From: Schmidtea polychroa | Lineage: Eukaryota | Direction: 5' to 3' | DNA: 64,000 nt | Assembly (NCBI GenBank): GCA_044892525.1 | Contig: CM097888.1 | Span: 45,818,001-45,882,000, forward strand | Shown here: piece by piece, positions 34,490-57,869 of the stretch | How positions within the stretch are numbered: the first letter of the stretch is position 1 | Layout of the letters: each line of letters opens with the position of its first letter | The notes under the pieces: generated by a model | What the model was told of the DNA's origin: nothing | The model's database searches: none | Seen by the model: only the letters and a program-made list of their open reading frames with translations | Translations under genes and position numbers: made by a program

Positions 34490-35955
34490 CTTCATTTTAA
34501 GTACGCATGGGTATTTTTTCCTATATATGAATAATTTATCTTAGTTAGTTGATGGTAGGTTTTTGCCAATCCTCCCGTAAATGATGTACTTTGGTTTTAT
34601 ACATATTAAAAATGAATCAAGTAATTTATCTTAAATATTTAACCCTTTGATTGTCCTGTGTATCACATATGATAAATAATTCTTATAAATTGATAGATGA
34701 AACATGCTTGTACCAGTAAAGGGTTAATAAAAGTTTATTAATTACAAAGTTTAAAAGTTATAAGTTGACCACAGTCAGTCACTGCCATCAGTTATTATGA
34801 CTAAAATTAATACTTATTATAAAAAAAATTATTAAACAGTAAAGAGTATTTACAATTAATAGTAGTATGTTTTAGAATTAATAAAGCTACAGAAAATATT
34901 TTACAGCTAATCGAAATTTTAATATTTGTCTGTTCTTAGACTTTATTTTGTATANNNNNNNNNNNNNNNNNNNNNNNNNNNNNNNNNNNNNNNNNNNNNN
35001 NNNNNNNNNNNNNNNNNNNNNNNNNNNNNNNNNNNNNNNNNNNNNNNNNNNNNNNNNNNNNNNNNNNNNNNNNNNNNNNNNNNNNNNNNNNNNNNATAGT
35101 AAGGACTCCAGGACACTTTCAAGGTCATCCCAATGTCCAGATCAAATATAGGTCAATCGAATCATTTTTTTTTTAATTAACATTTTATTTAATTACTTCT
35201 TTTTAATTTTTTTTTTTTTTTTTCATTTTAATTTTATTAATTAATTATTTTATTATGTTTTATTTTAATTTATTACATTTAATTAATTTATTAGTTTATT
35301 AATATTTTATTTTAATTACTTACGCTATTTAATTATTATTATTATTATTATTTTTTTTTTTAATTAATTTATTTATTTTTTAATTTTATTTAATTACTTC
35401 TATTTATTTTTTTTTTCTTTTTAATTTTCTTAATTAATTATTTTATTNNNNNNNNNNNNNNNNNNNNNNNNNNNNNNNNNNNNNNNNNNNNNNNNNNNNN
35501 NNNNNNNNNNNNNNNNNNNNNNNNNNNNNNNNNNNNNNNNNNNNNNNNNNNNNNNNNNNNNNNNNNNNNNNNNNNNNNNNNNNNNNNNNACAAGAGGTAA
35601 ATTATAACGATAATATTTCAATTTGAATAAAATTTTAATTAGTAATTATTCAATTTGAATAAAATTTTAATTAGAAATTATTTAATTAGTAATTATTCAA
35701 TTTGAATAAATTTTAATTAGAAATTATTTAATTTATTATAAAATAAAACGCTGAGTTAATTTTAGATAAACTGGATATTAATATTTCGGAAAAAATAAAT
35801 AAATAAATAAAATAAACACAAAAATAATATTTCTTACTTGAAACTAATTATCTAAATTAATTGGACAAATGAATAATTAAATGATAAAACACATTTTAAT
35901 TAACTAAGTCAAACAATTCACAATATATATTTTATTATTCACATAAATTTAATTG

Positions 35956-38900
35956 TTAAAGTGCTTGTTTCGATTTGCATTCATTTCTAGACATAGCAGT
36001 TGCAATATGCATTTGGCGAATCTTATAGTGACCGTAGGCATAACTTTCATTACAATTGTACCAATACCTTTTATCGTCCAAACATTGGAGAGCTCGTTTT
36101 TCTGTCATGAAAGTATACAACTGATGATTGACACTTCCTATTCTTTTTTGTGGGATGCTCACTGTTCCACCATCAGTATACACTTTTTTATAGGCTTCAT
36201 GTGTAAGATTAGAGTTTGTAAGTCTTATTCCTTTGGCTTTTAGAGTGTTTTTATCGCCTTGGAGTGAGTAGCACTTGGGTCGAAGAAACACCCATTCTTT
36301 ATATTGATTTCCTTTATTCTCATCCTTGAATTTCCCGATTACCGAACAAATTTTATCTGAGAACAATGGATCAGTCACTGGATAATTTGAAGTATCTAGG
36401 AGCCCATCGGCAATCATTTTTGGATATAGTTGTAAGCGTAAATCTACATTTTTACACTCTAAAAAGAAGGAACCTGTGTCTCCAGCAACGATATTAATTT
36501 GACAATTGAATTCGTCGCGATATTTTTGCAACTCTTCATACTGCAGCTGGTACATGCGAAGTTTGGATAAATCAAGTACGGTTTGTCCAATATACATTGG
36601 TCTATCTAAACACACAATTTCCTTATTGAGTATAACAGCAATGAGATCATCCGCAATCTTGATGCTACGACGAAACATAGGATTACTACAATAAGTTATC
36701 AATCTTTTGCTTTTGCTGCATAATCTCAAATTTATACGTTTCTTCAAGTTTTCCACAGTTTTACCGTATAAACTGTTGTTCTTTAACTTATAATAATCTC
36801 GCTGAAACGAATCTGTACTAGCTGCTCTCATTTTGGTATTGTAATCAATATAGCCTTTGAAAATAGCCACTTGCTTGAATTCTACAGCACGATTAACTTT
36901 TGTGACTTTTGCGCCGTAACTCAACCACTCTGTCAAAACTCTACCATTAACTACATAGTTTTTCTTAGGCTCATGAGTTAACAACAGCTTTTCAACTTTA
37001 CTACCAGGTGGATAACAAAGCTCAGGAGCTATAGGTAAATCATCTAGTTTATCTTGTATACTATCAGGAATGACGATGTCAACCTCTAGAACATATCCAA
37101 GATCTCCATCAAACTTATCCCCATTTGCACATCTTTCAACAATACCATTCATTTCAGTCTGATCATTTATCCATCTAAATTCACCAACAGGAAGTTTTTG
37201 CGACAGCGCCCATCCATATAAATTATTAACATCTAGGTATGACATTTGTGTTGATTCATCAGCTTCAACATGATGTTTGTTGATAAATGTCATTCCACCA
37301 CGAATACCAGCTTCAAATAAACGGTAAAGCTCTGGATCTTGAATAAGTTCTACTGGTTCAGGTAACTGTTTAATAGCTGATGCCCAACTTAATCCGGGTA
37401 TGGAAACAAACGATAGAGCCTCAAGTCCATCTTCGTCAAATGTTTTTTCTCTGAAAGCTTCAAAAACATCGGCCAACAGAAAAACATCCAACTTGAGATA
37501 TACTAGCATGTAATCTAGCAGTGTCTCACAGTTGTATTGTCGCCAGATTCGATTTGCATGTATATAATCTTCTTGACTAACTCCCTCCCAAATCGGTGGT
37601 AATTCTGTTATTGACTGTAAAACATCCATTGATGTAGCCATATCATAAGGAAATATGCCTTTACCAGTTATTAAATGCGAATTGAAAATCTTTGAAGTAA
37701 GTGGAAGACGTGGCAAGTTTTTTGATAAATTTGCCAAGCTGCTATTTAAAAATTGTAAAGAATCAATGAATCTAATTCTTCTGCCTTTCGATGTCGCTGT
37801 AAGTGTGAGAAACTTTTCTGTTGATTGAGGAATAACAATTAAATTCCAATCGGGGAATTTTCCAATTGCATATTTTAATATATGATGAATGTCATATCCA
37901 CGAAGATTATGAAATACAACAGGTAAAGACGGATTGATTCTTCTAGCCAAATTACAATCTTGACACGCTGCTCCGAGATATTGACCGGTAAAATGATCAT
38001 GATCCCGAACAGGTATATTGATAATCTTTTTACAAAGGTAGCAATGAGTTTGATTCGTAAATTCTTCCTGCTGTTCCCAAGTGAGTTCCATCATTTCCTT
38101 CGATCCATTAATTTTATACCACGGATAAACTATGTCTGTAGCTATATCATCCAATGCTTGTATAAACTGAATGATACAGTTTTTCCCAACAAATGTTTCA
38201 TTTCGAATCGGACAACCTTGATGAAGAAGCACAAATTCAGATGCAATCGGCTCATGTTTTTGGAAGTGCTTGTCATCTAGAGGTAATATTGATTCAAAGT
38301 CCGCGTAGACAACAAACTGCTGTTTTATAGTTTTACTCCAGTCTTTAAATTCGATATATTTATTCTCTGGCATTGAGTATAGAGTCGTCCGCTCCACATT
38401 CTTCCTACAAAGACCTATATGTCTTTCAAAAGCAGGACGTTTTTGAAACCCATGAAGACACGTATGACACCAATGTGATTGGATTCTGACTCCTTCTACT
38501 CTATCTCTGTAATTGAGCAGTCGATCGAGATTAGTTACAGCCAAAAAATGATAATTTAATTCTAAAATTTAGTTAATATTTTTAATGATTAAAAGAAATA
38601 TTACCTTCTTCAATCAATAAGAGATATAATTGACATCCCGTCGAAGTACTTCTATATACCAAGTCAACGAACGGATTCTTGAAAATATCATTAGTTTTTT
38701 GTTTAATTGGATCTTTATTATATTTGAGAACATTGATCGCTAGATTAGGATTCATTGCCTCAAATTGGCAAATGTTAACCAACTTCATTGGAAACCAATC
38801 TGATTTCCATTTTAACTCTAAATATATATATATATTTTTAGAATGATATAAATATATATTACCACTTAAATTATATTTCATTACTCTTTCTCTGTGGTGT

Positions 38901-39935
38901 TTTATGTCATCATAATGTAATACGGCCAGTATGCTATATAAAAAGCAGAATTGATCATTATTTTGAACATTAACTAAAGCCTGGCAGTTTTTCAGGTAAT
39001 TTGGCGTTTTAATGTAACTTGAACCTAAGTAAATATCTTGATTTATATATATAATAATGTAAATAAACTTACCAGATACATGTATTATGTCTGATAATTT
39101 AGTTAAAATCATAGTAACTTCTAATATTTTATGAATTCTCCACCCACTACTTTGTTGAGTGTATTTCTCCAACTTTTCTTTTAATTTTTCAATTCCATCA
39201 TTAATAAATGAAGATGACATTGTAATTGCTTTATTCGACAAACACCATTTTTTAATTTCACCATCCTCTTTGATAAACTCTGCACAAAGTCCAAATTGGA
39301 TTTTTACTGTACCCATTCGTTGAATATGATCTTCTATTTCTCTGATGAGACAATCTGGAACAACAATGTCAGGAGAATTAATTGCAGATACATCGCTTGT
39401 CAATTCAACACGAGAACCATTTAAGTCAGACTCCCGACGTGGACACAATTGTATGTTAGAGTCTCCATTTCCGTAAAATATTGACTTTCGTTTTGTGGTG
39501 CCAGAGTTTTGTCTAACTATATTTATAATTAATATTAAACAACTTAAATAACATAACTTGTAACATATTCTTTAATCTGCTTAGGATCGTATGATGTATT
39601 CATTTTCGATTGTACTATAAAAAATTAATAATTGTTAATAGTAGAAAGAGTATTACTTTTAGTGATCATCCTGCTCTTCGTTTCTTCGAATCTTCTAAGA
39701 TGGTGTCCGTGTTGTCGTACAAACATTAACCACCTACCTGGTGATATAATGAGACATTCCGGACATATGTAACCCGATAAGGTAGAGTCATTTATCTTGA
39801 AATATGATGATGTAACTGATTTACAGTTCTCTACATCTTCATGACTTTCGGCAATACAAAATTTATATAAACTGCATCCGTTCACTAAAAGAAAATAATC
39901 ATTAATATTAGATAGAGAATAAAAAAATATTCACT
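35956..39935 (-). CDS. Intron-containing protein-primed-type family B DNA polymerase, left-arm copy
   Basis: Mirror of 43005-46984; the three ORF translations are identical to the right-arm ORFs. Confidence 0.88.
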
Positions 39936-39959
39936 TATATAAGTTAAATTAAAAGTTTA

Positions 39960-40095
39960 AATGACAAACATTTGAAAAGTTACTGCTTATATATTACACA
40001 TGATTAAATTCTGACCAATCAAAATCAAGGAAGGGGTAGGAAAAATAAATATATTCTGACCAATCAAAATCAAGGAAGGGGTAGGAAAAATAAAT
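39960..40095 (-). promoter_or_regulatory. Putative Pol II promoter of left PolB (2x CCAAT + TATA)
   Basis: Mirror of 42845-42980: two 43-bp units TTCTGACCAATCAAAATCAAGGAAGGGGTAGG and TTATATA. Confidence 0.55.
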
Positions 40096-40199
40096 GTGTT
40101 GCAGTATTTTAAAACTTCAATATATTTTAAAACACATTTTGATGCTAAAGTTGACTTATTTAACATTTTTCATAATAATTTAATAAAAAATAATGTGAT

Positions 40200-40650
40200 G
40201 AACCCACAAAGTAATATCATTTTTCATCAAATTGCAAAACAGTAATAACGTTTTCATAAAATTGTAACAAAGTAATAACATATTTCAGATAAATTTTCAA
40301 CAGTTGTAAAATATTTAAGCAAATTGTAACAAGATTAGAAAATATTACAACAAAGTAGTAACATATTTCAGAGAATTTCAACAAAGTTGTAAAATATTTA
40401 TCAAATTGTAACTAAAATAATAAAAATATTGCAACAAAGTAATAAAATAATGATGTTAATTGGGACAAATCAATACATTATTTCGAAGACGGACAACAAA
40501 TTAAAAAGAATATTGTAATAAATTGTGAAGTCTTTCAGTAAATTACAACAAAGTAATAACATATTTCGGAAATATTTCACCAGATGTAAAATATTTAAGC
40601 AAATTGTTATAAGATTATAAAAATATTGCAACAAAGTAATAAAATAATAC
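40200..40650. repeat. Imperfect ~83-bp tandem array (left arm)
   Basis: ACAAAGTA marker at about 40267, 40351, 40434, 40548 and 40631. Confidence 0.8.
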
Positions 40651-40667
40651 AACATTTTAAACTCTAG

Positions 40668-41430
40668 ATCAATCCATTTTATAGAAAATTAAATTTTATC
40701 TCTATAATATATGAATAAATATACAAGGAAATTACGTTAACTGTATGAAAAATACAAATTTATCGTAAAAACATGTGTGTATTACACACAACACACGAGA
40801 CATAATTTTTAATCAAGCTATTTTATAGAAAATTAAATTTTATCTATATATTATATGAATAAAATCCTAAGAAAATTACGTTAACTGTATGAAAAATACA
40901 AATTTATCATAAAAAAATGTGTGTATTACACACAAAACAAGATACATAATTTCTAATCAATCCATTTTGAAGAAAATTAAATTTTATCTATATATTATAT
41001 GAATAAAATCCTAAGAAAATTACGTTAACTATATGAAAAATACAAATTTATCTTAAAAACATGTGTGTATTACACACAACATACGAGACATAATTTCTAA
41101 TCAATCCATTTTATAGAAAATTAAATTTTATCTATATATTATATGAATAAAATCCTAAGAAAATTACGTTAACTGTATGAAAAATACAAATTTATCGTAA
41201 AAACATGTGTGTATTACACACAACATACGAGACATAATTTTTAATCAAGCTATTTTATAGAAAATTAAATTTTATCTATATAATATATGAATAAAAATCC
41301 AGGAAAATTACGTTAACCGCGCGAAAAATACAAATTTATCGTAAAAACATGTGTGTATTACACACAAAGCGACAAACTAAAGTTTTAATTGAGCCATTTT
41401 GTAGAGAATTAAATTCTGCCTATACATGGT
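40668..41430. repeat. 144-bp tandem array, 5 units plus a diverged partial unit (left arm)
   Basis: TTACGTTAAC at 40732, 40876, 41020, 41164 and 41308 (period exactly 144); each unit has the palindrome TGTGTGTA-T-TACACACA. Confidence 0.95.
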
Positions 41431-41452
41431 TACACTTAAATCCCAATCGAAC

Positions 41453-41487
41453 TGTTTTTTCTCTCTCTTTTTCTCTCTTTTCTCTTT
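41453..41487. other. Non-palindromic 35-nt apex loop of the fold-back
   Basis: ...TCCCAATCGAAC [TG T6 CTCTCTC T5 CTCTC T4 CTC T3] GTTCGATTGGGA... Confidence 0.95.
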
Positions 41488-41509
41488 GTTCGATTGGGAT
41501 TTAAGTGTA

Positions 41510-42272
41510 ACCATGTATAGGCAGAATTTAATTCTCTACAAAATGGCTCAATTAAAACTTTAGTTTGTCGCTTTGTGTGTAATACACACATGTTTTTACG
41601 ATAAATTTGTATTTTTCGCGCGGTTAACGTAATTTTCCTGGATTTTTATTCATATATTATATAGATAAAATTTAATTTTCTATAAAATAGCTTGATTAAA
41701 AATTATGTCTCGTATGTTGTGTGTAATACACACATGTTTTTACGATAAATTTGTATTTTTCATACAGTTAACGTAATTTTCTTAGGATTTTATTCATATA
41801 ATATATAGATAAAATTTAATTTTCTATAAAATGGATTGATTAGAAATTATGTCTCGTATGTTGTGTGTAATACACACATGTTTTTAAGATAAATTTGTAT
41901 TTTTCATATAGTTAACGTAATTTTCTTAGGATTTTATTCATATAATATATAGATAAAATTTAATTTTCTTCAAAATGGATTGATTAGAAATTATGTATCT
42001 TGTTTTGTGTGTAATACACACATTTTTTTATGATAAATTTGTATTTTTCATACAGTTAACGTAATTTTCTTAGGATTTTATTCATATAATATATAGATAA
42101 AATTTAATTTTCTATAAAATAGCTTGATTAAAAATTATGTCTCGTGTGTTGTGTGTAATACACACATGTTTTTACGATAAATTTGTATTTTTCATACAGT
42201 TAACGTAATTTCCTTGTATATTTATTCATATATTATAGAGATAAAATTTAATTTTCTATAAAATGGATTGAT
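41510..42272. repeat. 144-bp tandem array (right arm, mirror)
   Basis: Reverse complement of 40668-41430, including the unit-specific variants checked. Confidence 0.95.
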
Positions 42273-42289
42273 CTAGAGTTTAAAATGTT

Positions 42290-42740
42290 GTATTATTTTA
42301 TTACTTTGTTGCAATATTTTTATAATCTTATAACAATTTGCTTAAATATTTTACATCTGGTGAAATATTTCCGAAATATGTTATTACTTTGTTGTAATTT
42401 ACTGAAAGACTTCACAATTTATTACAATATTCTTTTTAATTTGTTGTCCGTCTTCGAAATAATGTATTGATTTGTCCCAATTAACATCATTATTTTATTA
42501 CTTTGTTGCAATATTTTTATTATTTTAGTTACAATTTGATAAATATTTTACAACTTTGTTGAAATTCTCTGAAATATGTTACTACTTTGTTGTAATATTT
42601 TCTAATCTTGTTACAATTTGCTTAAATATTTTACAACTGTTGAAAATTTATCTGAAATATGTTATTACTTTGTTACAATTTTATGAAAACGTTATTACTG
42701 TTTTGCAATTTGATGAAAAATGATATTACTTTGTGGGTTC
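42290..42740. repeat. Imperfect ~83-bp tandem array (right arm, mirror)
   Basis: Reverse complement of 40200-40650. Confidence 0.8.
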
Positions 42741-42844
42741 ATCACATTATTTTTTATTAAATTATTATGAAAAATGTTAAATAAGTCAACTTTAGCATCA
42801 AAATGTGTTTTAAAATATATTGAAGTTTTAAAATACTGCAACAC

Positions 42845-42980
42845 ATTTATTTTTCCTACCCCTTCCTTGATTTTGATTGGTCAGAATATATTTATTTTTC
42901 CTACCCCTTCCTTGATTTTGATTGGTCAGAATTTAATCATGTGTAATATATAAGCAGTAACTTTTCAAATGTTTGTCATT
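42845..42980 (+). promoter_or_regulatory. Putative Pol II promoter of right PolB (2x CCAAT + TATA + Inr-like)
   Basis: 43-bp unit ATTTATTTTTCCTACCCCTTCCTTGATTTTGATTGGTCAGAAT at 42845 and 42890; TATATAA at 42947-42953; TCATT about 25 nt downstream. Confidence 0.55.
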
Positions 42981-43004
42981 TAAACTTTTAATTTAACTTA
43001 TATA

Positions 43005-46000
43005 AGTGAATATTTTTTTATTCTCTATCTAATATTAATGATTATTTTCTTTTAGTGAACGGATGCAGTTTATATAAATTTTGTATTGCCGAAAGTCATG
43101 AAGATGTAGAGAACTGTAAATCAGTTACATCATCATATTTCAAGATAAATGACTCTACCTTATCGGGTTACATATGTCCGGAATGTCTCATTATATCACC
43201 AGGTAGGTGGTTAATGTTTGTACGACAACACGGACACCATCTTAGAAGATTCGAAGAAACGAAGAGCAGGATGATCACTAAAAGTAATACTCTTTCTACT
43301 ATTAACAATTATTAATTTTTTATAGTACAATCGAAAATGAATACATCATACGATCCTAAGCAGATTAAAGAATATGTTACAAGTTATGTTATTTAAGTTG
43401 TTTAATATTAATTATAAATATAGTTAGACAAAACTCTGGCACCACAAAACGAAAGTCAATATTTTACGGAAATGGAGACTCTAACATACAATTGTGTCCA
43501 CGTCGGGAGTCTGACTTAAATGGTTCTCGTGTTGAATTGACAAGCGATGTATCTGCAATTAATTCTCCTGACATTGTTGTTCCAGATTGTCTCATCAGAG
43601 AAATAGAAGATCATATTCAACGAATGGGTACAGTAAAAATCCAATTTGGACTTTGTGCAGAGTTTATCAAAGAGGATGGTGAAATTAAAAAATGGTGTTT
43701 GTCGAATAAAGCAATTACAATGTCATCTTCATTTATTAATGATGGAATTGAAAAATTAAAAGAAAAGTTGGAGAAATACACTCAACAAAGTAGTGGGTGG
43801 AGAATTCATAAAATATTAGAAGTTACTATGATTTTAACTAAATTATCAGACATAATACATGTATCTGGTAAGTTTATTTACATTATTATATATATAAATC
43901 AAGATATTTACTTAGGTTCAAGTTACATTAAAACGCCAAATTACCTGAAAAACTGCCAGGCTTTAGTTAATGTTCAAAATAATGATCAATTCTGCTTTTT
44001 ATATAGCATACTGGCCGTATTACATTATGATGACATAAAACACCACAGAGAAAGAGTAATGAAATATAATTTAAGTGGTAATATATATTTATATCATTCT
44101 AAAAATATATATATATATTTAGAGTTAAAATGGAAATCAGATTGGTTTCCAATGAAGTTGGTTAACATTTGCCAATTTGAGGCAATGAATCCTAATCTAG
44201 CGATCAATGTTCTCAAATATAATAAAGATCCAATTAAACAAAAAACTAATGATATTTTCAAGAATCCGTTCGTTGACTTGGTATATAGAAGTACTTCGAC
44301 GGGATGTCAATTATATCTCTTATTGATTGAAGAAGGTAATATTTCTTTTAATCATTAAAAATATTAACTAAATTTTAGAATTAAATTATCATTTTTTGGC
44401 TGTAACTAATCTCGATCGACTGCTCAATTACAGAGATAGAGTAGAAGGAGTCAGAATCCAATCACATTGGTGTCATACGTGTCTTCATGGGTTTCAAAAA
44501 CGTCCTGCTTTTGAAAGACATATAGGTCTTTGTAGGAAGAATGTGGAGCGGACGACTCTATACTCAATGCCAGAGAATAAATATATCGAATTTAAAGACT
44601 GGAGTAAAACTATAAAACAGCAGTTTGTTGTCTACGCGGACTTTGAATCAATATTACCTCTAGATGACAAGCACTTCCAAAAACATGAGCCGATTGCATC
44701 TGAATTTGTGCTTCTTCATCAAGGTTGTCCGATTCGAAATGAAACATTTGTTGGGAAAAACTGTATCATTCAGTTTATACAAGCATTGGATGATATAGCT
44801 ACAGACATAGTTTATCCGTGGTATAAAATTAATGGATCGAAGGAAATGATGGAACTCACTTGGGAACAGCAGGAAGAATTTACGAATCAAACTCATTGCT
44901 ACCTTTGTAAAAAGATTATCAATATACCTGTTCGGGATCATGATCATTTTACCGGTCAATATCTCGGAGCAGCGTGTCAAGATTGTAATTTGGCTAGAAG
45001 AATCAATCCGTCTTTACCTGTTGTATTTCATAATCTTCGTGGATATGACATTCATCATATATTAAAATATGCAATTGGAAAATTCCCCGATTGGAATTTA
45101 ATTGTTATTCCTCAATCAACAGAAAAGTTTCTCACACTTACAGCGACATCGAAAGGCAGAAGAATTAGATTCATTGATTCTTTACAATTTTTAAATAGCA
45201 GCTTGGCAAATTTATCAAAAAACTTGCCACGTCTTCCACTTACTTCAAAGATTTTCAATTCGCATTTAATAACTGGTAAAGGCATATTTCCTTATGATAT
45301 GGCTACATCAATGGATGTTTTACAGTCAATAACAGAATTACCACCGATTTGGGAGGGAGTTAGTCAAGAAGATTATATACATGCAAATCGAATCTGGCGA
45401 CAATACAACTGTGAGACACTGCTAGATTACATGCTAGTATATCTCAAGTTGGATGTTTTTCTGTTGGCCGATGTTTTTGAAGCTTTCAGAGAAAAAACAT
45501 TTGACGAAGATGGACTTGAGGCTCTATCGTTTGTTTCCATACCCGGATTAAGTTGGGCATCAGCTATTAAACAGTTACCTGAACCAGTAGAACTTATTCA
45601 AGATCCAGAGCTTTACCGTTTATTTGAAGCTGGTATTCGTGGTGGAATGACATTTATCAACAAACATCATGTTGAAGCTGATGAATCAACACAAATGTCA
45701 TACCTAGATGTTAATAATTTATATGGATGGGCGCTGTCGCAAAAACTTCCTGTTGGTGAATTTAGATGGATAAATGATCAGACTGAAATGAATGGTATTG
45801 TTGAAAGATGTGCAAATGGGGATAAGTTTGATGGAGATCTTGGATATGTTCTAGAGGTTGACATCGTCATTCCTGATAGTATACAAGATAAACTAGATGA
45901 TTTACCTATAGCTCCTGAGCTTTGTTATCCACCTGGTAGTAAAGTTGAAAAGCTGTTGTTAACTCATGAGCCTAAGAAAAACTATGTAGTTAATGGTAGA

Positions 46001-46984
46001 GTTTTGACAGAGTGGTTGAGTTACGGCGCAAAAGTCACAAAAGTTAATCGTGCTGTAGAATTCAAGCAAGTGGCTATTTTCAAAGGCTATATTGATTACA
46101 ATACCAAAATGAGAGCAGCTAGTACAGATTCGTTTCAGCGAGATTATTATAAGTTAAAGAACAACAGTTTATACGGTAAAACTGTGGAAAACTTGAAGAA
46201 ACGTATAAATTTGAGATTATGCAGCAAAAGCAAAAGATTGATAACTTATTGTAGTAATCCTATGTTTCGTCGTAGCATCAAGATTGCGGATGATCTCATT
46301 GCTGTTATACTCAATAAGGAAATTGTGTGTTTAGATAGACCAATGTATATTGGACAAACCGTACTTGATTTATCCAAACTTCGCATGTACCAGCTGCAGT
46401 ATGAAGAGTTGCAAAAATATCGCGACGAATTCAATTGTCAAATTAATATCGTTGCTGGAGACACAGGTTCCTTCTTTTTAGAGTGTAAAAATGTAGATTT
46501 ACGCTTACAACTATATCCAAAAATGATTGCCGATGGGCTCCTAGATACTTCAAATTATCCAGTGACTGATCCATTGTTCTCAGATAAAATTTGTTCGGTA
46601 ATCGGGAAATTCAAGGATGAGAATAAAGGAAATCAATATAAAGAATGGGTGTTTCTTCGACCCAAGTGCTACTCACTCCAAGGCGATAAAAACACTCTAA
46701 AAGCCAAAGGAATAAGACTTACAAACTCTAATCTTACACATGAAGCCTATAAAAAAGTGTATACTGATGGTGGAACAGTGAGCATCCCACAAAAAAGAAT
46801 AGGAAGTGTCAATCATCAGTTGTATACTTTCATGACAGAAAAACGAGCTCTCCAATGTTTGGACGATAAAAGGTATTGGTACAATTGTAATGAAAGTTAT
46901 GCCTACGGTCACTATAAGATTCGCCAAATGCATATTGCAACTGCTATGTCTAGAAATGAATGCAAATCGAAACAAGCACTTTAA
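43005..46984 (+). CDS. Intron-containing protein-primed-type family B DNA polymerase (~1236 aa), right-arm copy; motif C reads DTGS
   Basis: Exons 43005, 43056-43283, 43326-43382, 43424-43867, 43916-44077, 44123-44335 and 44379-46984 total 3711 nt, in frame. Motifs GSSYIKTP, NNDQFCFLYSILA, YADFES, DHDHFTG, FHNLRGYD, FIDSLQFL, KGIFPY, YLKLD, GIRGG, YLDVNNLYG, KLKNNSLYGK and GDTGS. First intron/start is least certain. Confidence 0.88.
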
Positions 46985-49916
46985 CAATTAAATTTATGTG
47001 AATAATAAAATATATATTGTGAATTGTTTGACTTAGTTAATTAAAATGTGTTTTATCATTTAATTATTCATTTGTCCAATTAATTTAGATAATTAGTTTC
47101 AAGTAAGAAATATTATTTTTGTGTTTATTTTATTTATTTATTTATTTTTTCCGAAATATTAATATCCAGTTTATCTAAAATTAACTCAGCGTTTTATTTT
47201 ATAATAAATTAAATAATTTCTAATTAAAATTTATTCAAATTGAATAATTACTAATTAAATAATTTCTAATTAAAATTTTATTCAAATTGAATAATTACTA
47301 ATTAAAATTTTATTCAAATTGAAATATTATCGTTATAATTTACCTCTTGTTAGNNNNNNNNNNNNNNNNNNNNNNNNNNNNNNNNNNNNNNNNNNNNNNN
47401 NNNNNNNNNNNNNNNNNNNNNNNNNNNNNNNNNNNNNNNNNNNNNNNNNNNNNNNNNNNNNNNNNNNNNNNNNNNNNNNNNNNNNNNNNNNNNNNAATAA
47501 AATAATTAATTAAGAAAATTAAAAAGAAAAAAAAATAAATAGAAGTAATTAAATAAAATTAAAAAATAAATAAATTAATTAAAAAAAAAATAATAATAAT
47601 AATAATAATAATAATTAAATAGCGTAAGTAATTAAAATAAAATATTAATAAACTAATAAATTAATTAAATGTAATAAATTAAAATAAAACATAATAAAAT
47701 AATTAATTAATAAAATTAAAATGAAAAAAAAAAAAAAAAATTAAAAAGAAGTAATTAAATAAAATGTTAATTAAAAAAAAAAATGATTCGATTGACCTAT
47801 ATTTGATCTGGACATTGGGATGACCTTGAAAGTGTCCTGGAGTCCTTACTATTCACTACTATTGTTAACATAATCATAAACATAGAACTGATTAATATAT
47901 TAAAATAAGTAAAACCAACATCACATATACAACATATTTCTACAAGTTCATTGTCATTATTACATAAGAAAGAAAAACTATGTATATTTTAAATAGCGTA
48001 TTTAAAAAATTTTAAGAATTCATAAACCAATTAGTTATTTTTTTCTTAATTAAACAATTTAAAATTTAAGAAAATATATTTTGTTTAAAATTTTAAATGA
48101 TTTGAAATTTTAATAAATAGTGTTAAAACATTCTGGTTTATTGAATTTTATTTTATTTTACTTTTAAAAGAATTACATATTAATAAATATATTGATGATG
48201 TATGTAATGAGAATATATTGGGAACTATGTAACTAAAGTTCAGAAAGAAGTTCTTAGTGTAATTCAAATTTATGATAGTGCTTTGAATTTAAATCAAAAG
48301 GAAAAAATGCAATGTATGGGAATAATATTTGGATTTTATTCTCACATTTTTTTAACAGTTTCACAATATTATTTTTTCGATATTTCATTCAAATTATATT
48401 TCATTCATATTATAAAATATAAAAACATAAAATTATCAAACTGTAACATTTGTGTTGTTAATGCATAATTTTCAATAGAACTGGTTAATTAGAAACAATT
48501 TTGTTGTAATATTTTTTATCCATATTTTGCCGTGTATTTAGGGAAATGTACACAACAAGAAAAACCTTGTTACGTAGATATAATAAATTTTTTAACGTTC
48601 GATTTCTCCCGATCACCTTTGGCGTCCCTTCTAACTTAACACTCATGTGTTTACAGCATTTTGCATATTGATTTTCGGATCCAATGAAATCCGCTTATAT
48701 ATTTATTAGAATTTTAATTATAGTTTGATTAAATTTTTGATAGTAAAAAGGTCTTCCATGTATTTTGATTTAATAAAAATATTTCGATTACTTTATTCGA
48801 AATCGCAAATTTTTGTTAAATTTGTAGAAAAATAAATTATTTCTATTCAGAAGTCAGCTATGATATTTTTAACAAGGGGCTCGATCTTTTTTTCCTTGAG
48901 AATCGTATGAACTAGTACCCTAGTAACGTGTCACTGCGACTGACATAAAAAACAAAATAATGTTAATTAAATGGTTTATTTTACACAAAAATCGTCGCTT
49001 TACAAATGTATGTAATGAAAACGATTTCAAGATATTATATTTTGTTTTTGAAAAATTAGTTACCAAGAAGAACAGGGGCTCGCAAATCATAGAATGATTT
49101 AATAAAGGCCTCCTATAGCTCTAGCTCACCACTATTCCTATTCATATAATTATTCTAATCCGCGGACCCTCCTGTAGGCCTAACCAATTTATAATTTTAA
49201 TTTATTTTTAAATAACTACAGTATGATTGTAACTATTTATTTTAAATAAAAAAATCAATTAAATTAATAACATTGTAAATACTACATTTTTATAATTTAT
49301 AAATTGCTTAATTTCCAATAGGTTCATTTGACCTAGTTAAATACTATTGTGACCTAGTATAAATGTTGTTATAAAATTCAATATAGTCTAAATTTTTATA
49401 AGAGCATGCCATATATAATTTATTGATGAACAGTTTATGTACAAATGCAACAGTTCAGTTCAATACCTACACAAAGACAATACAGATAATACTGAAATAA
49501 TACGCCTGAAAAATTAGACCAATAGACAAATCTTCAAATAAATTAAAATAAATAATGTACAAATTTTCAAATTAAATTTTTTTTTAATCAATTTCATTAA
49601 AAATTCTTTATTGCCGATTTTTCTGGCTCAACCATTTTCAAATCACAGATTGAAAGTCAAATTTTTACGCATAATAAAAAAACTATCTGAAAAAATCGTT
49701 ATTATTGTATTAATTAAACACCCAATTTCAACATGGCAGCTTTTCATGGATTAAAATTTCATCGTTTCAATAGTAAATCTACTATTTGTACTAAAACATT
49801 AAATGAAAATTAACATGAACGAAACAGATTTCATAGTAGAAATAAATACTTCAATATCAAACAATTCATCAAATACTAATAAATTTGAGAGAAAAATAAT
49901 ACAATTAACATAATTC

Positions 49917-55900: not shown

Positions 55901-57514
55901 GAAGGTTTAATCACAGTCATTGTTGCAGATCTAATCTCATTTTAAAAACAAACAATATTATTCCTTGAATAAGTGTGCATCTCAAGTTTACGTATAATTT
56001 ATATATTATCAAAACTTAATATTTGTTTATTATAATGTCCTTATTTACTGAAAGCTACTATAAACTCCAATGTAGGATTAAGTTATCATATTTAGTCCGT
56101 CACATCAGAAATCCTATTGGACGCTCACGAGTCGCCCGTTAAGTTATAAATATTGGCAGCCAATAACAATTACTTGAGAATCGTCAGTTTCTGCACACTT
56201 GACATTGGACTCGATATTTGCATTTTTATTTTCAGAATTTGACAATTTCGTTTCTAAAATCAAATATAAATTATATATATATATTTGTAGAAAATTATAG
56301 AAAAAAGAACCCATTGGGGGATTAATTTGAATAACTCCAGTAGGGCTGGTTATTTGCGGATTACTCGAAGGAATTGCCAGTCCTTGATTAATTTGATGAG
56401 CTGATAGTCTATGTTGAACAACACCGTTAATAAGAATTTCATTGATATTTGTAATTTGGGCATTTTGTTGAGATTGTTTTTGATGATGGCTAGCAGCAAG
56501 CGCATTGTTCAATGTTGAAATAATGTTACTGAGAGCTACCATTTGGTTTGACGCAAGATCTCCATTGGCACTAGAATTTGATCCAGATGAAGTTAACGGA
56601 GTGACGACAGTAGAAAGACATCCGGCAATTGAAGGAGCAGCAATAAGATGATTCAACTGAGGAGAAAGTGTGAGAATGTTCCCGTTGTTATTGTTTGCAA
56701 TACTGGACAGTATAGTGTTGCTTGTGTTTTGTGAATTTCCCGAACAATCCTTTCTTGTAAGTATTGTTAGAGGGTTGTTGATATTTGCACTGGAGGATAA
56801 CAACGCAGTTATAGCTTGTCCGGTATTCCATGTTACCGGGATTGAACCGACCAAATGGGTGATGTTTCCCGGTGTTGTGATTGGAGAAATATTATTTATT
56901 GTAATACTCGGTTTCCCGTTTGACACGACGCAAGTTGTTCCGTTTCCATTGACACGTGACTGGTGAGCAGCGGGAGGAGACTTTATGTCACTTTCAGGGG
57001 AAACAGATTCTGATGATGGTGATTTATCTATTGAAAGATTCAAACCAATTGCTTTCTAACAAAAAGTATATTATATTATACAGTAAAACAACAATTAAGA
57101 CTCACATTTTCATTTACATAGAAATTACAGATTTCCGATTTAGGCTGGGTAAGATTTAAAGGGCTGTCGTCTTCATCAGGCTAGAATTGGAAATGAAAAA
57201 CAAACTAAGATGAGAATTTCTTTTGAAAAATTAAACAATTATACTTTTTGAACGATTTCATTTTTGATGCTAGAGATTCCTGACAATAAGCCGTCGAGGA
57301 AAACTCCAATCTCATTGGGATTTATACTTGTGGAGTTACAAATCATTTTTATCAATTGAATGATATTGCTTGTTACTACCGGGATAATATTAACATGTTG
57401 TGAGCAGTTATTGTCCTGGAAATTACTGAAAAATGTTGCCAATATTGGATTTTGGGAAATTATTTTATTAAGTGAAACTACATCGAAACCATTCCCAGAA
57501 CAATTTAATAGGTT

Positions 57515-57550
<36 letters not shown>

Positions 57551-57826
57551 ATTGTTATTATTACTGATGTTGTTGTTATTGTTTAGATTTGTTACAGCAC
57601 CGTTCAGCAGATTTTGGAGATCAATATTCGCTTGGGATATTGAAATACTTTGGCCAATACCCGTGCTAGAAATCGGGCATATAGAAGGTCGCTCGTTCGC
57701 AATCATTGAGGTTTGAAAAAGAGTAATATTAGCTCCTTGAGAACTATGTGACAAATTTGCCGTTGTGATTGGTGAATAGGAAAGAATCAGTCTGCTGGGA
57801 GGATGGACTTTACGCCGAGAAGACAT
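49917..57826 (-). CDS. SoxD: SoxD-group HMG-box transcription factor (~778 aa, 7 coding exons)
   Basis: Exons 57826-57245, 57180-57106, 57055-56311, 56253-56174, 54470-54315, 54271-53944 and 50287-49917 total 2337 nt, all phase-compatible. HMG: [22 protein letters not shown]|[48 protein letters not shown]-terminus MSSRRK; PLNLT motif. Confidence 0.9.
50700..51015 (+). pseudogene. Possible Gypsy RNase H remnant in a SoxD intron
   Basis: [15 protein letters not shown] resembles the YLxGxKFxxxTDHxxL motif. Confidence 0.3.
51130..51822 (+). mobile_element. Non-autonomous Helitron retaining the helicase C-terminus
   Basis: 5' CTAATATATATTATAAAG plus (CACT)n; [44 protein letters not shown]; 3' hairpin GGGCGCCGTAGGCTCCC then CTAG|T (51819-51822). 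5' boundary approximate. Confidence 0.88.
52049..52208. repeat. 17-bp inverted repeat pair, TIR-like
   Basis: TTGTCCAGTATCCCCCC at 52049-52065 and GGGGGGATACTGGACAA at 52192-52208. Confidence 0.75.
53306..53385 (+). mobile_element. Tigger/pogo-like terminal fragment
   Basis: TA|CAGTGAAACCTC start with internal inverted repeat CTAATAGGACCACC / GGTGGTCCTATTAG. Other end not found. Confidence 0.45.
54624..54666. repeat. (TAGGCAAACC)x4, probably a MITE subterminal region
   Basis: Direct reading of the sequence. Confidence 0.85.
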
Positions 57827-57869
57827 AAAATGATCCTGAATATTAAAAATAAATTATAATTATTAGCAA

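Follow-up and report, generated by a model that had tools for sequence, protein, structure and literature searches.

What kind of genetic element carries a replicative DNA polymerase gene twice, in mirror image, and no gene for an integrase, an ATPase or a capsid? This question is raised by a 12.8-kb palindrome in a stretch of 64,000 nucleotides of Schmidtea polychroa (assembly GCA_044892525.1, contig CM097888.1, positions 45,818,001 to 45,882,000, forward strand), which as a whole is referred to as the window. A first interpretation, made from the letters of the window and in the following called the sequence-only reading, took the palindrome for a Maverick-like element coding for a DNA polymerase of family B that is protein-primed (pPolB), i.e., the unfolded, integrated form of a linear replicon with a closed hairpin end, and named a simple fold-back deletion derivative as the alternative. 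Searches of the genome now assign it to a young, many-copy family of real, integrated elements, named family P. Probably, P is a replication-competent, integration-dependent satellite of Mavericks with terminal repeats over about 95% of its length, which likely replicates by way of a snap-back hairpin and likely depends on the integrase of a helper.

Self-comparison confirmed the two-armed layout with a loop of 35 nt. The segments 35590-41452 and 41488-47350 are exact reverse complements over 5,863 bp with 0 substitutions, and in the outer visible 352 bp (35096-35447 versus 47496-47852) three small gaps in simple-sequence tracts are the sole differences. Each arm holds mirror open reading frames (ORFs) of 870, 329 and 101 codons (coordinate sum 82940) and is ordered, as originally described, from the end through an AT tract, the pPolB gene, a promoter-like 45-bp repeat in two copies, an 83-bp array and a 144-bp array of 5.2 copies to the apex; the right end with its ACTACT was likewise confirmed (Table 1). 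On the left, the outermost 8 bases of the element and the adjoining flank are hidden under a run of N (34955-35095), so that the target duplication of the window copy itself is unreadable.

In the genome searched (G000, 781 Mb), 497 matches to the terminal 25-mer, 290 to the apex-flank motif and 395 to the joint of arm and centre were found, with 0 matches to reversed-pattern controls. The further copies which the sequence-only reading had proposed to look for thus exist, and the family comprises roughly 150-250 loci. Among 24 copies on contig C1 with both ends fetched, picked to span sizes, 21 are flanked by an exact 6-bp target duplication, which is the footprint of an integrase (control: 1 of 552 mismatched pairs); the other three feature a 5-of-6-like duplication, a truncated end and an end in a microsatellite, respectively. 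Together with 6 of 6 further copies on C3, C4 and C21, exact duplications flank 27 of 30 copies, and ends of the AGTAGT..ACTACT type occur at both sides in 22 of 24 other copies. The proposed polymerase-only satellite is accordingly borne out as an integrated family. Paired ends on C1 are spaced 12.3-13.8 kb apart in 22 of 35 cases, and arm length across copies ranges from 5.7 to 6.7 kb. The two arms of a copy often disagree in the number of array units or by indels (45 to 579 bp), and some insertions are confined to one arm, e.g., a hAT element in L020 and a 13-kb insert in L017-L019. These one-sided insertions and the array and indel differences exclude a mirror artefact. An origin by assembly, amplification or read fold-back could appeal to the zero arm substitutions of the window copy and to its apex, which no contig bridges in four public runs over 41405-41530, a hole that proves nothing. 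However, target duplications with unmirrored flanks, array or indel differences between the arms in most copies, nested one-arm insertions and an arm-to-module joint recovered in one independent public sequencing run all contradict it. The probability of an artefact is negligible; for the family it is refuted, and the sole unconfirmed part is the 35-nt apex of the window copy.

A mini subfamily of 4.4-4.8 kb (L097, L108, L020 and L102; 22 matches) has lost the polymerase through one deletion present in mirror image on both arms, and has kept the centre. The junction of this 4.2-kb deletion was seen in 22 of 40 matches, including seven mirrored pairs (14 matches). Tandem P copies on C21 were considered as a concatemer, which was rejected as they share the same flank and thus represent a segmental duplication. 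Insertion sites lay inside other Mavericks in 6 of 58 P sites, a count that includes two sites picked for unusual size and stands without a genome-wide background, and from which no target preference is therefore derived.

The centre of the palindrome turned out to differ from the closed 35-nt hairpin end which had been proposed as its design. Typically, it is an asymmetric module of 215-460 bp that stems from a helper end (30 of 33 distinct modules measure 215-458 bp; median 365 bp), and the ~24 outermost bases of a Maverick terminus border it on either side. The usual type of module is a terminus of family H, autonomous Mavericks of the same genome: in the H-type modules listed, identity to the helper end is 90-100% over the first 61-68 bases and 75-90% over up to 350 bases, and three deleted modules match over less (45-50 bases in two). 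The joint recovered in the independent public run is that of an arm with an H-type module. A second end type borders the modules of L011/L012 and L015/L016, and a third that of one copy (L146) of a related palindromic family, Q. All three types meet the arm at one joint, following its five inner bases. In the arm tree, the two copies with the second type fall within those with the first, so that the centre was exchanged; their innermost arm sequence differs as well, and the array may therefore contain the point of exchange. The 35-nt apex of the window copy, in contrast to the typical centre, occurs once in the genome, and other copies lacking a module stop at differing places, which identifies the loop as a deletion scar; it is the remnant left by a copy-specific deletion of the helper-end module and one inner 35-bp arm segment. 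The strict earlier model assumes a linear replicon of 6.4 kb, protein-primed at one end and covalently closed at the other by a 35-nt hairpin, similar to the hairpin derivatives of yeast killer plasmids; the form of 12.8 kb would be its unfolded dimer. The perfect arms and short loop of the window copy, the predicted terminal-protein fold of the polymerase and the existence in print of a yeast hairpin plasmid (a title cited in the accessible part of PMC4443254) agree with this model. Nevertheless, it is improbable in view of the unique apex, of module-less copies ending elsewhere in the manner of post-insertion deletions, of typical centres measuring hundreds of bases, and of the lack of a resolvase or nicking gene in the element.

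Some centres contain captured DNA (L069/L095, L093/L094, L039/L040 and L067/L068), namely a 2-kb piece of a helper that includes part of its polymerase, 2.7 kb from the polymerase gene of P itself, or a second copy of the module; in this respect the centre resembles a hot spot of template switching. It was also considered as a free-standing miniature inverted-repeat transposable element (MITE); 13 of 13 short paired matches lie in P-arm context on at least one side, the search pattern including the arm's five inner bases and hence being blind to free copies. The inner arm end (L001:7581-7625 and equivalents) features a ladder of AG repeats split by A runs, followed by a doubled AGTAG, and this ladder resembles repeated Maverick terminal words.

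The gene carried by both arms is matched by the polymerase profile PF03175 (E 3e-31), and according to prediction, the three mirrored ORFs of each arm belong to a single gene with introns. Intronless metagenomic pPolB homologues, 60-63% identical, align to 43079-46924 over three frames. The predicted exons (43005 as a single base, 43056-43283, 43326-43382, 43424-43867, 43916-44077, 44123-44335 and 44379-46984) form an open chain of ~1,236 codons, separated by six predicted GT-AG introns of 41-50 nt, all of phase 1, the first of which splits the start codon. Each predicted exon boundary is conserved in 57-71 of 60-71 copies, and one predicted intron coincides with an exact 16-residue gap in the homologue alignment, a second one less cleanly. 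No GT-AG joint was found over 42800-47250 in four runs, three of them guessed to be RNA, which is no evidence either way as the run types are guesses; likewise of guessed type, runs X8, X17 and X19 yielded contigs passing unspliced across predicted introns, and X19 shows one replaced joint at 44335-44384, near intron 6. Runs X15 and X19, bearing a second species label (organism B), contain related polymerase sequence in 27 of 30 bins of the same interval.

Exon 4 is predicted to fold (pLDDT 93.9) into a sheet of four to five strands with two helices, its best fold matches being the pPolB of adintoviruses and MELD elements (E 6e-6 and 8e-4). An invariant Ser followed by Gly is located in the loop preceding the last strand, the position given for the priming residue of Polinton terminal-protein domains in the available text of PMC11071308; the ESM Atlas, searched with this exon, returned no usable match. 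The vOTU Cys and His, the exonuclease motifs and polymerase motifs A and B are present in the gene. In motif C, both arms of the window copy carry a missense change at the conserved catalytic position (near 46467, mirror near 36473), which is private to this copy, motif C being canonical in 71 of 71 other frames. Because both arms are affected, the window copy probably is inactive on its own. Across 60 long-exon copies of 42 elements, the ratio of nonsynonymous to synonymous polymorphism (pN/pS) is 0.25 for variants common to at least two elements and 0.63-0.74 for private ones. The low ratio among shared variants indicates that the polymerase was useful while family P spread.

Genes for integrase, ATPase and capsid are missing, as had been claimed. 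In tblastn searches with eight core proteins of two Maverick families of the genome, none was found in the element (one match at E 0.71); this covers two integrases, two ATPases and two capsid-type ORFs, among others. The palindromic layout also leaves no coding room for an integrase. Beyond the polymerase, the sole ORF of at least 100 codons in the arms is an antisense frame of 117 codons inside the polymerase gene, no search having been aimed at a protease. Candidate helpers, full Mavericks with intact integrases, are abundant in the genome, in agreement with the assumed integration in trans. Family H measures 15.3-15.5 kb and features AGTAGG ends, 6-bp duplications, integrase, ATPase, capsid-type and TATA-binding protein (TBP)-like ORFs, and pPolB. 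All 113 scored candidates match its integrase at 94-100% identity, and the same integrase type (~90%) was found with two further end types, so that the integrase seems tolerant of end sequence. The first five terminal bases are common to all Maverick families compared. The TBP-like protein of a helper is short (L052:2763-3227; PF00352, E 5e-15), and a metagenomic relative contains an ORF judged by eye to be similar (L130:11330-11779).

It might be argued that P simply arose by a recent fold-back deletion in one of the autonomous Mavericks of this genome and has no life of its own. Such an origin describes a unique palindrome, R, and fits family Q (both below). Identity between the P polymerase and the polymerases of the fetched autonomous elements, however, is no higher than 55-56%. 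In a FastTree analysis of 88 proteins, of which, due to the distant root, only local groupings were used, the P polymerase clusters with metagenomic proteins instead (60-63%; FastTree support 0.88). A scan of metagenomes gave three loci with relatives, one of them (L130) a full Maverick-like element, and a scan of viral contigs gave none. No full Maverick sharing the terminal 75 bp, as had been proposed to be searched for, was found among the loci fetched, and none lay behind the P terminal motif in 20 further loci (0/20). The low polymerase identity and the missing full elements argue that P is not a fresh deletion of any helper fetched. Furthermore, five coding introns absent from the autonomous polymerases, several subfamilies and the purifying selection contradict such a derivation, and a one-off event does not explain a family of many copies. 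The fold-back deletion is thus very improbable for P.

Several other palindromes were found in the same genome. Family Q, a second polymerase-only palindrome of 12-13.7 kb (G000:C1:67951519-67965254, L089/L092; L143/L144; L145/L146; L151/L152), differs from P in its ends and is constructed on the centre, the arrays and the predicted promoter of the latter. Its polymerase shares 80-87% identity with the one encoded by an autonomous Maverick (L090/L091). These four copies feature 6-bp duplications; a fifth Q-ended locus (L149/L150) is one-armed and has none. The Q end motif has 169 matches and is shared with autonomous elements. Palindrome R is unique (13 kb, G000:C1:259304713-259317770, L017-L019) and represents a fold-back of a distant Maverick family, containing capsid, integrase and ATPase genes twice and no polymerase. 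Its arms are 99.5-99.9% alike, and it sits inside a P copy that itself lies within a Maverick. As R has its own 6-bp duplication, fold-back molecules can be integrated whole. The idea that R is the second segment of a bipartite system was rejected, its apex occurring once among 41 matches. Gene-less palindromes of 14.5-15.4 kb (L133/L134, L135/L136, L137/L138 and L141/L142) carry Maverick ends and 6-bp duplications in 4 of 4 cases; their end type has 868 matches and is also used by autonomous elements (L139/L140). In addition, two Mavericks of a distant family lie head to head with 71-95% identity in a rough inverted arrangement of 26 kb (G000:C3:134882000-134912000, L056-L058).

How could an element of this anatomy be copied? 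A panhandle route is known for adenovirus, and a racket model exists for Polintons. In P, the fused terminal protein would prime strand-displacement synthesis at the outer end. As the terminal repeats extend over ~95% of the length, displaced strands would snap back: being self-complementary over ~6.3 kb, such a strand would form a hairpin, its loop measuring a few hundred bases, and the duplex origin would thus be rebuilt. Such a hairpin with its single-stranded loop would resemble the panhandle of adenovirus or Polintons, stretched to ~95% of the genome. Re-initiation and copying through the loop would yield the full duplex palindrome, repair or fold-back extension within the hairpin would copy changes between the arms, and the integrase of a helper would insert the duplex. 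In the chromosome, the palindrome would tend to lose its centre, which may have resulted in the 35-nt loop of the window copy. Within 12 of 13 elements, the arms differ by 0-5 substitutions per ~4,450 bases, compared with medians of 32-118 between elements, and most elements have their two arms as sister branches of the tree. The near-identity of the arms, the mirrored 4.2-kb deletion and the fold-back integrated whole fit hairpin copying before integration, and the data do not separate it from conversion in place.

Accordingly, an ordinary non-autonomous element with terminal inverted repeats (TIRs) of great length has to be weighed, the duplex of which would be moved by the integrase and polymerase of a helper, with the arms kept alike by chromosomal gene conversion, no hairpin and a marginal role of its own polymerase. 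Animals are known to show gene conversion between the arms of long palindromes. This alternative is favoured by the private changes shared by both arms, by their nearly neutral pN/pS, by the search for a parent finding none, and by the spread of palindromes without polymerase or without any gene. It is considered unlikely, since the polymerase is under purifying selection in shared variants, since later insertions and array changes stay one-armed, i.e., conversion is not continuous, and since R was integrated whole as a fold-back with its target duplication.

Some observations weigh against the satellite with hairpin replication. The snap-back hairpin is a prediction from sequence, and arm identity could also stem from arm-to-arm conversion after insertion. 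The window copy has six private long-exon changes on both arms and none on one arm only; no frame among the 98 best-scoring ones is identical to it, and no parent carrying its private changes was found. Variants of this both-arm private kind are nearly neutral (pN/pS 0.66), and 31 of 60 long-exon copies contain a frameshift or stop. In L005/L006, which is a recombinant, the arms differ by 85 substitutions, and in L033/L034 by 26. Since polymerase-less mini copies also spread, the own polymerase is not required in cis. Finally, the outer ends of P match helper or autonomous ends at only 10-16 of 24 bases, so that the helper integrases are candidates for the one acting on P; the search for a full-size parent covered the fetched loci and the top 98 matches.

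A more far-reaching and tentative possibility regards P as a satellite virus of Mavericks. Doubling of the arms would make displaced strands double-stranded at once and would let the genome reach the size of a helper capsid, and the centre would be an exchangeable cassette of helper ends deciding which Maverick replicates, packages or integrates P. The same block of centre plus promoter would have turned a second Maverick polymerase, that of Q, into a like element. This reading is based on the three centre types at one joint, on family Q reusing the block and on size, helpers measuring 14.2-16.2 kb versus 12.3-13.8 kb for the majority of paired P copies. Capsid size as a requirement is weakened by the mini copies, which spread too.

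Outside the palindrome, the window contains an ORF of 644 codons resembling hAT transposases (PF05699, 25001-26935, plus strand), a tubulin-family ORF (PF00091, PF03953; 18355-20052, minus strand) and an ORF with zf-C2HC repeats (PF13913; 14658-15404, plus strand), the latter two presumably host genes. Two ORFs of 303 and 204 codons (56144-57055 and 57239-57853, both minus strand) have no Pfam match. The features of the palindrome are compiled in Table 1.

Table 1. Features of the family P copy, in positions of the window.
Feature	Position	Strand	Basis
Whole visible element, palindrome of 12.8 kb (family P)	35096-47860		Self-comparison and family searches
Left arm, with a stretch of N at 35448-35589	35096-41452	-	Self-comparison
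Right arm, with a stretch of N at 47354-47495	41488-47860	+	Self-comparison
Loop of 35 nt, pyrimidine-rich, 2-base microhomology at the joint	41453-41487		Self-comparison, genome search
144-bp array, 5.2 copies; mirror 40668-41415	41525-42272	+	Repeat analysis
83-bp array (42491-42679) within a 197-bp higher-order repeat; 83-bp mirror 40266-40449	42298-42709	+	
Predicted promoter: 45-bp direct repeat (two copies), CCAAT-type word, TATA-like word (42946-42952); mirror 39988-40095	42845-42952	+	Function inferred
pPolB gene of the right arm, ~1,236 aa	43005-46984	+	Homology and predicted splicing
pPolB gene of the left arm, exact mirror	35956-39935	-	Self-comparison
Predicted terminal-protein (priming) domain	43477-43866	+	Predicted fold
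Long open reading frame with the vOTU His, exonuclease motifs I-III, an insert resembling endonuclease VII, intact polymerase motifs A and B, and the altered motif C	44372-46984	+	
AT-rich low-complexity subterminal tract; mirror ~35160-35900	47040-47790	+	
Right terminal 75 bp, last bases ACTACT (47855-47860); the next six, ATTGTT (47861-47866), are the expected target duplication	47786-47860	+	

Compared with known systems, P is most similar to Mavericks/Polintons, with which it shares AGTAGT..ACTACT ends, the 6-bp target duplication, a size of ~13 kb and a protein-primed PolB with predicted terminal-protein and vOTU domains (available text of PMC11071308). Its closest full relatives, found in the genome and as metagenome locus L130, possess ORFs for an integrase, an ATPase, a capsid-type and a TBP-like protein, whereas P is devoid of integrase, ATPase and capsid. 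TIRs of Mavericks are given as 46-1,447 bp (PMC8097293) or 100-1,500 bp (bioRxiv 10.1101/2023.08.22.554363) in the accessible parts of these sources; those of P, with ~6.3 kb, exceed the published maximum at least four times and include the polymerase gene, which is therefore present twice. Moreover, P has predicted spliceosomal introns, intact Mavericks being described as intronless, and its centre is built from the end of another Maverick, unlike in autonomous ones. Lacking integrase and packaging genes and having oversize repeats, P by its gene content does not qualify as an autonomous Maverick. Reduced elements are on record: nine Polintons without capsid, protease and ATPase (PMC4028283) and, in nematodes, polymerase-end remnants without integrase (bioRxiv 10.1101/2024.01.15.575659), both as far as the available text extends.

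Fold-back forms occur in other replicons as well. The derivatives of the yeast cytoplasmic linear plasmid pGKL1 resemble P in that a protein-primed linear replicon is cut down to a fold-back with mirror arms. Hairpin and palindromic forms of this plasmid were reportedly described by Kikuchi et al. in 1985. They are cytoplasmic, non-integrating laboratory products, whereas P is nuclear, integrating and many-copy, has evolved as a family in its own right and features a loop that is long and asymmetric. Snap-back genomes are also known in adeno-associated virus (AAV; accessible part of PMC8235507). Such snap-back or copy-back defective genomes likewise are self-complementary subgenomes which keep one end twice and need a helper for missing functions, but they are transient and arise by the rolling-hairpin mechanism of parvoviruses, whereas P features protein priming, a selected polymerase of its own and germline integration. 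MITEs and Foldback elements are non-autonomous transposons with TIR or foldback structure. Together with the gene-less Maverick palindromes, this group shares mirror arms, a helper transposase acting in trans and internal arrays with P; P differs by encoding a full replicative polymerase, and it shares with the gene-less family at most one promoter-like arm segment of 120 bp. A palindromic polymerase-only Polinton was not found described in the literature searched, Repbase reports, subscription journals and supplements lying outside it, and the available text of PMC6431247, PMC8532177 and PMC10680173 contains nothing on palindromic forms. The present analysis contributes the polymerase-only anatomy and the exchanged centre.

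For the biology of Mavericks, these findings have several implications. Kapitonov and Jurka are said to have proposed in 2006 the self-synthesis model, with strand displacement and a panhandle or racket intermediate, and this model rests largely on sequence inference. In family P, replication and integration appear to be divided between different elements. Surveys which require integrase plus polymerase, or five core proteins, as stated in their accessible parts, would miss P, and short-read assemblies would collapse it, so that elements of this type may be overlooked elsewhere. As a young family of 150-250 copies with mirrored arm mutations, P provides a natural readout of the replication intermediate, the snap-back form of which would be distinct in size.

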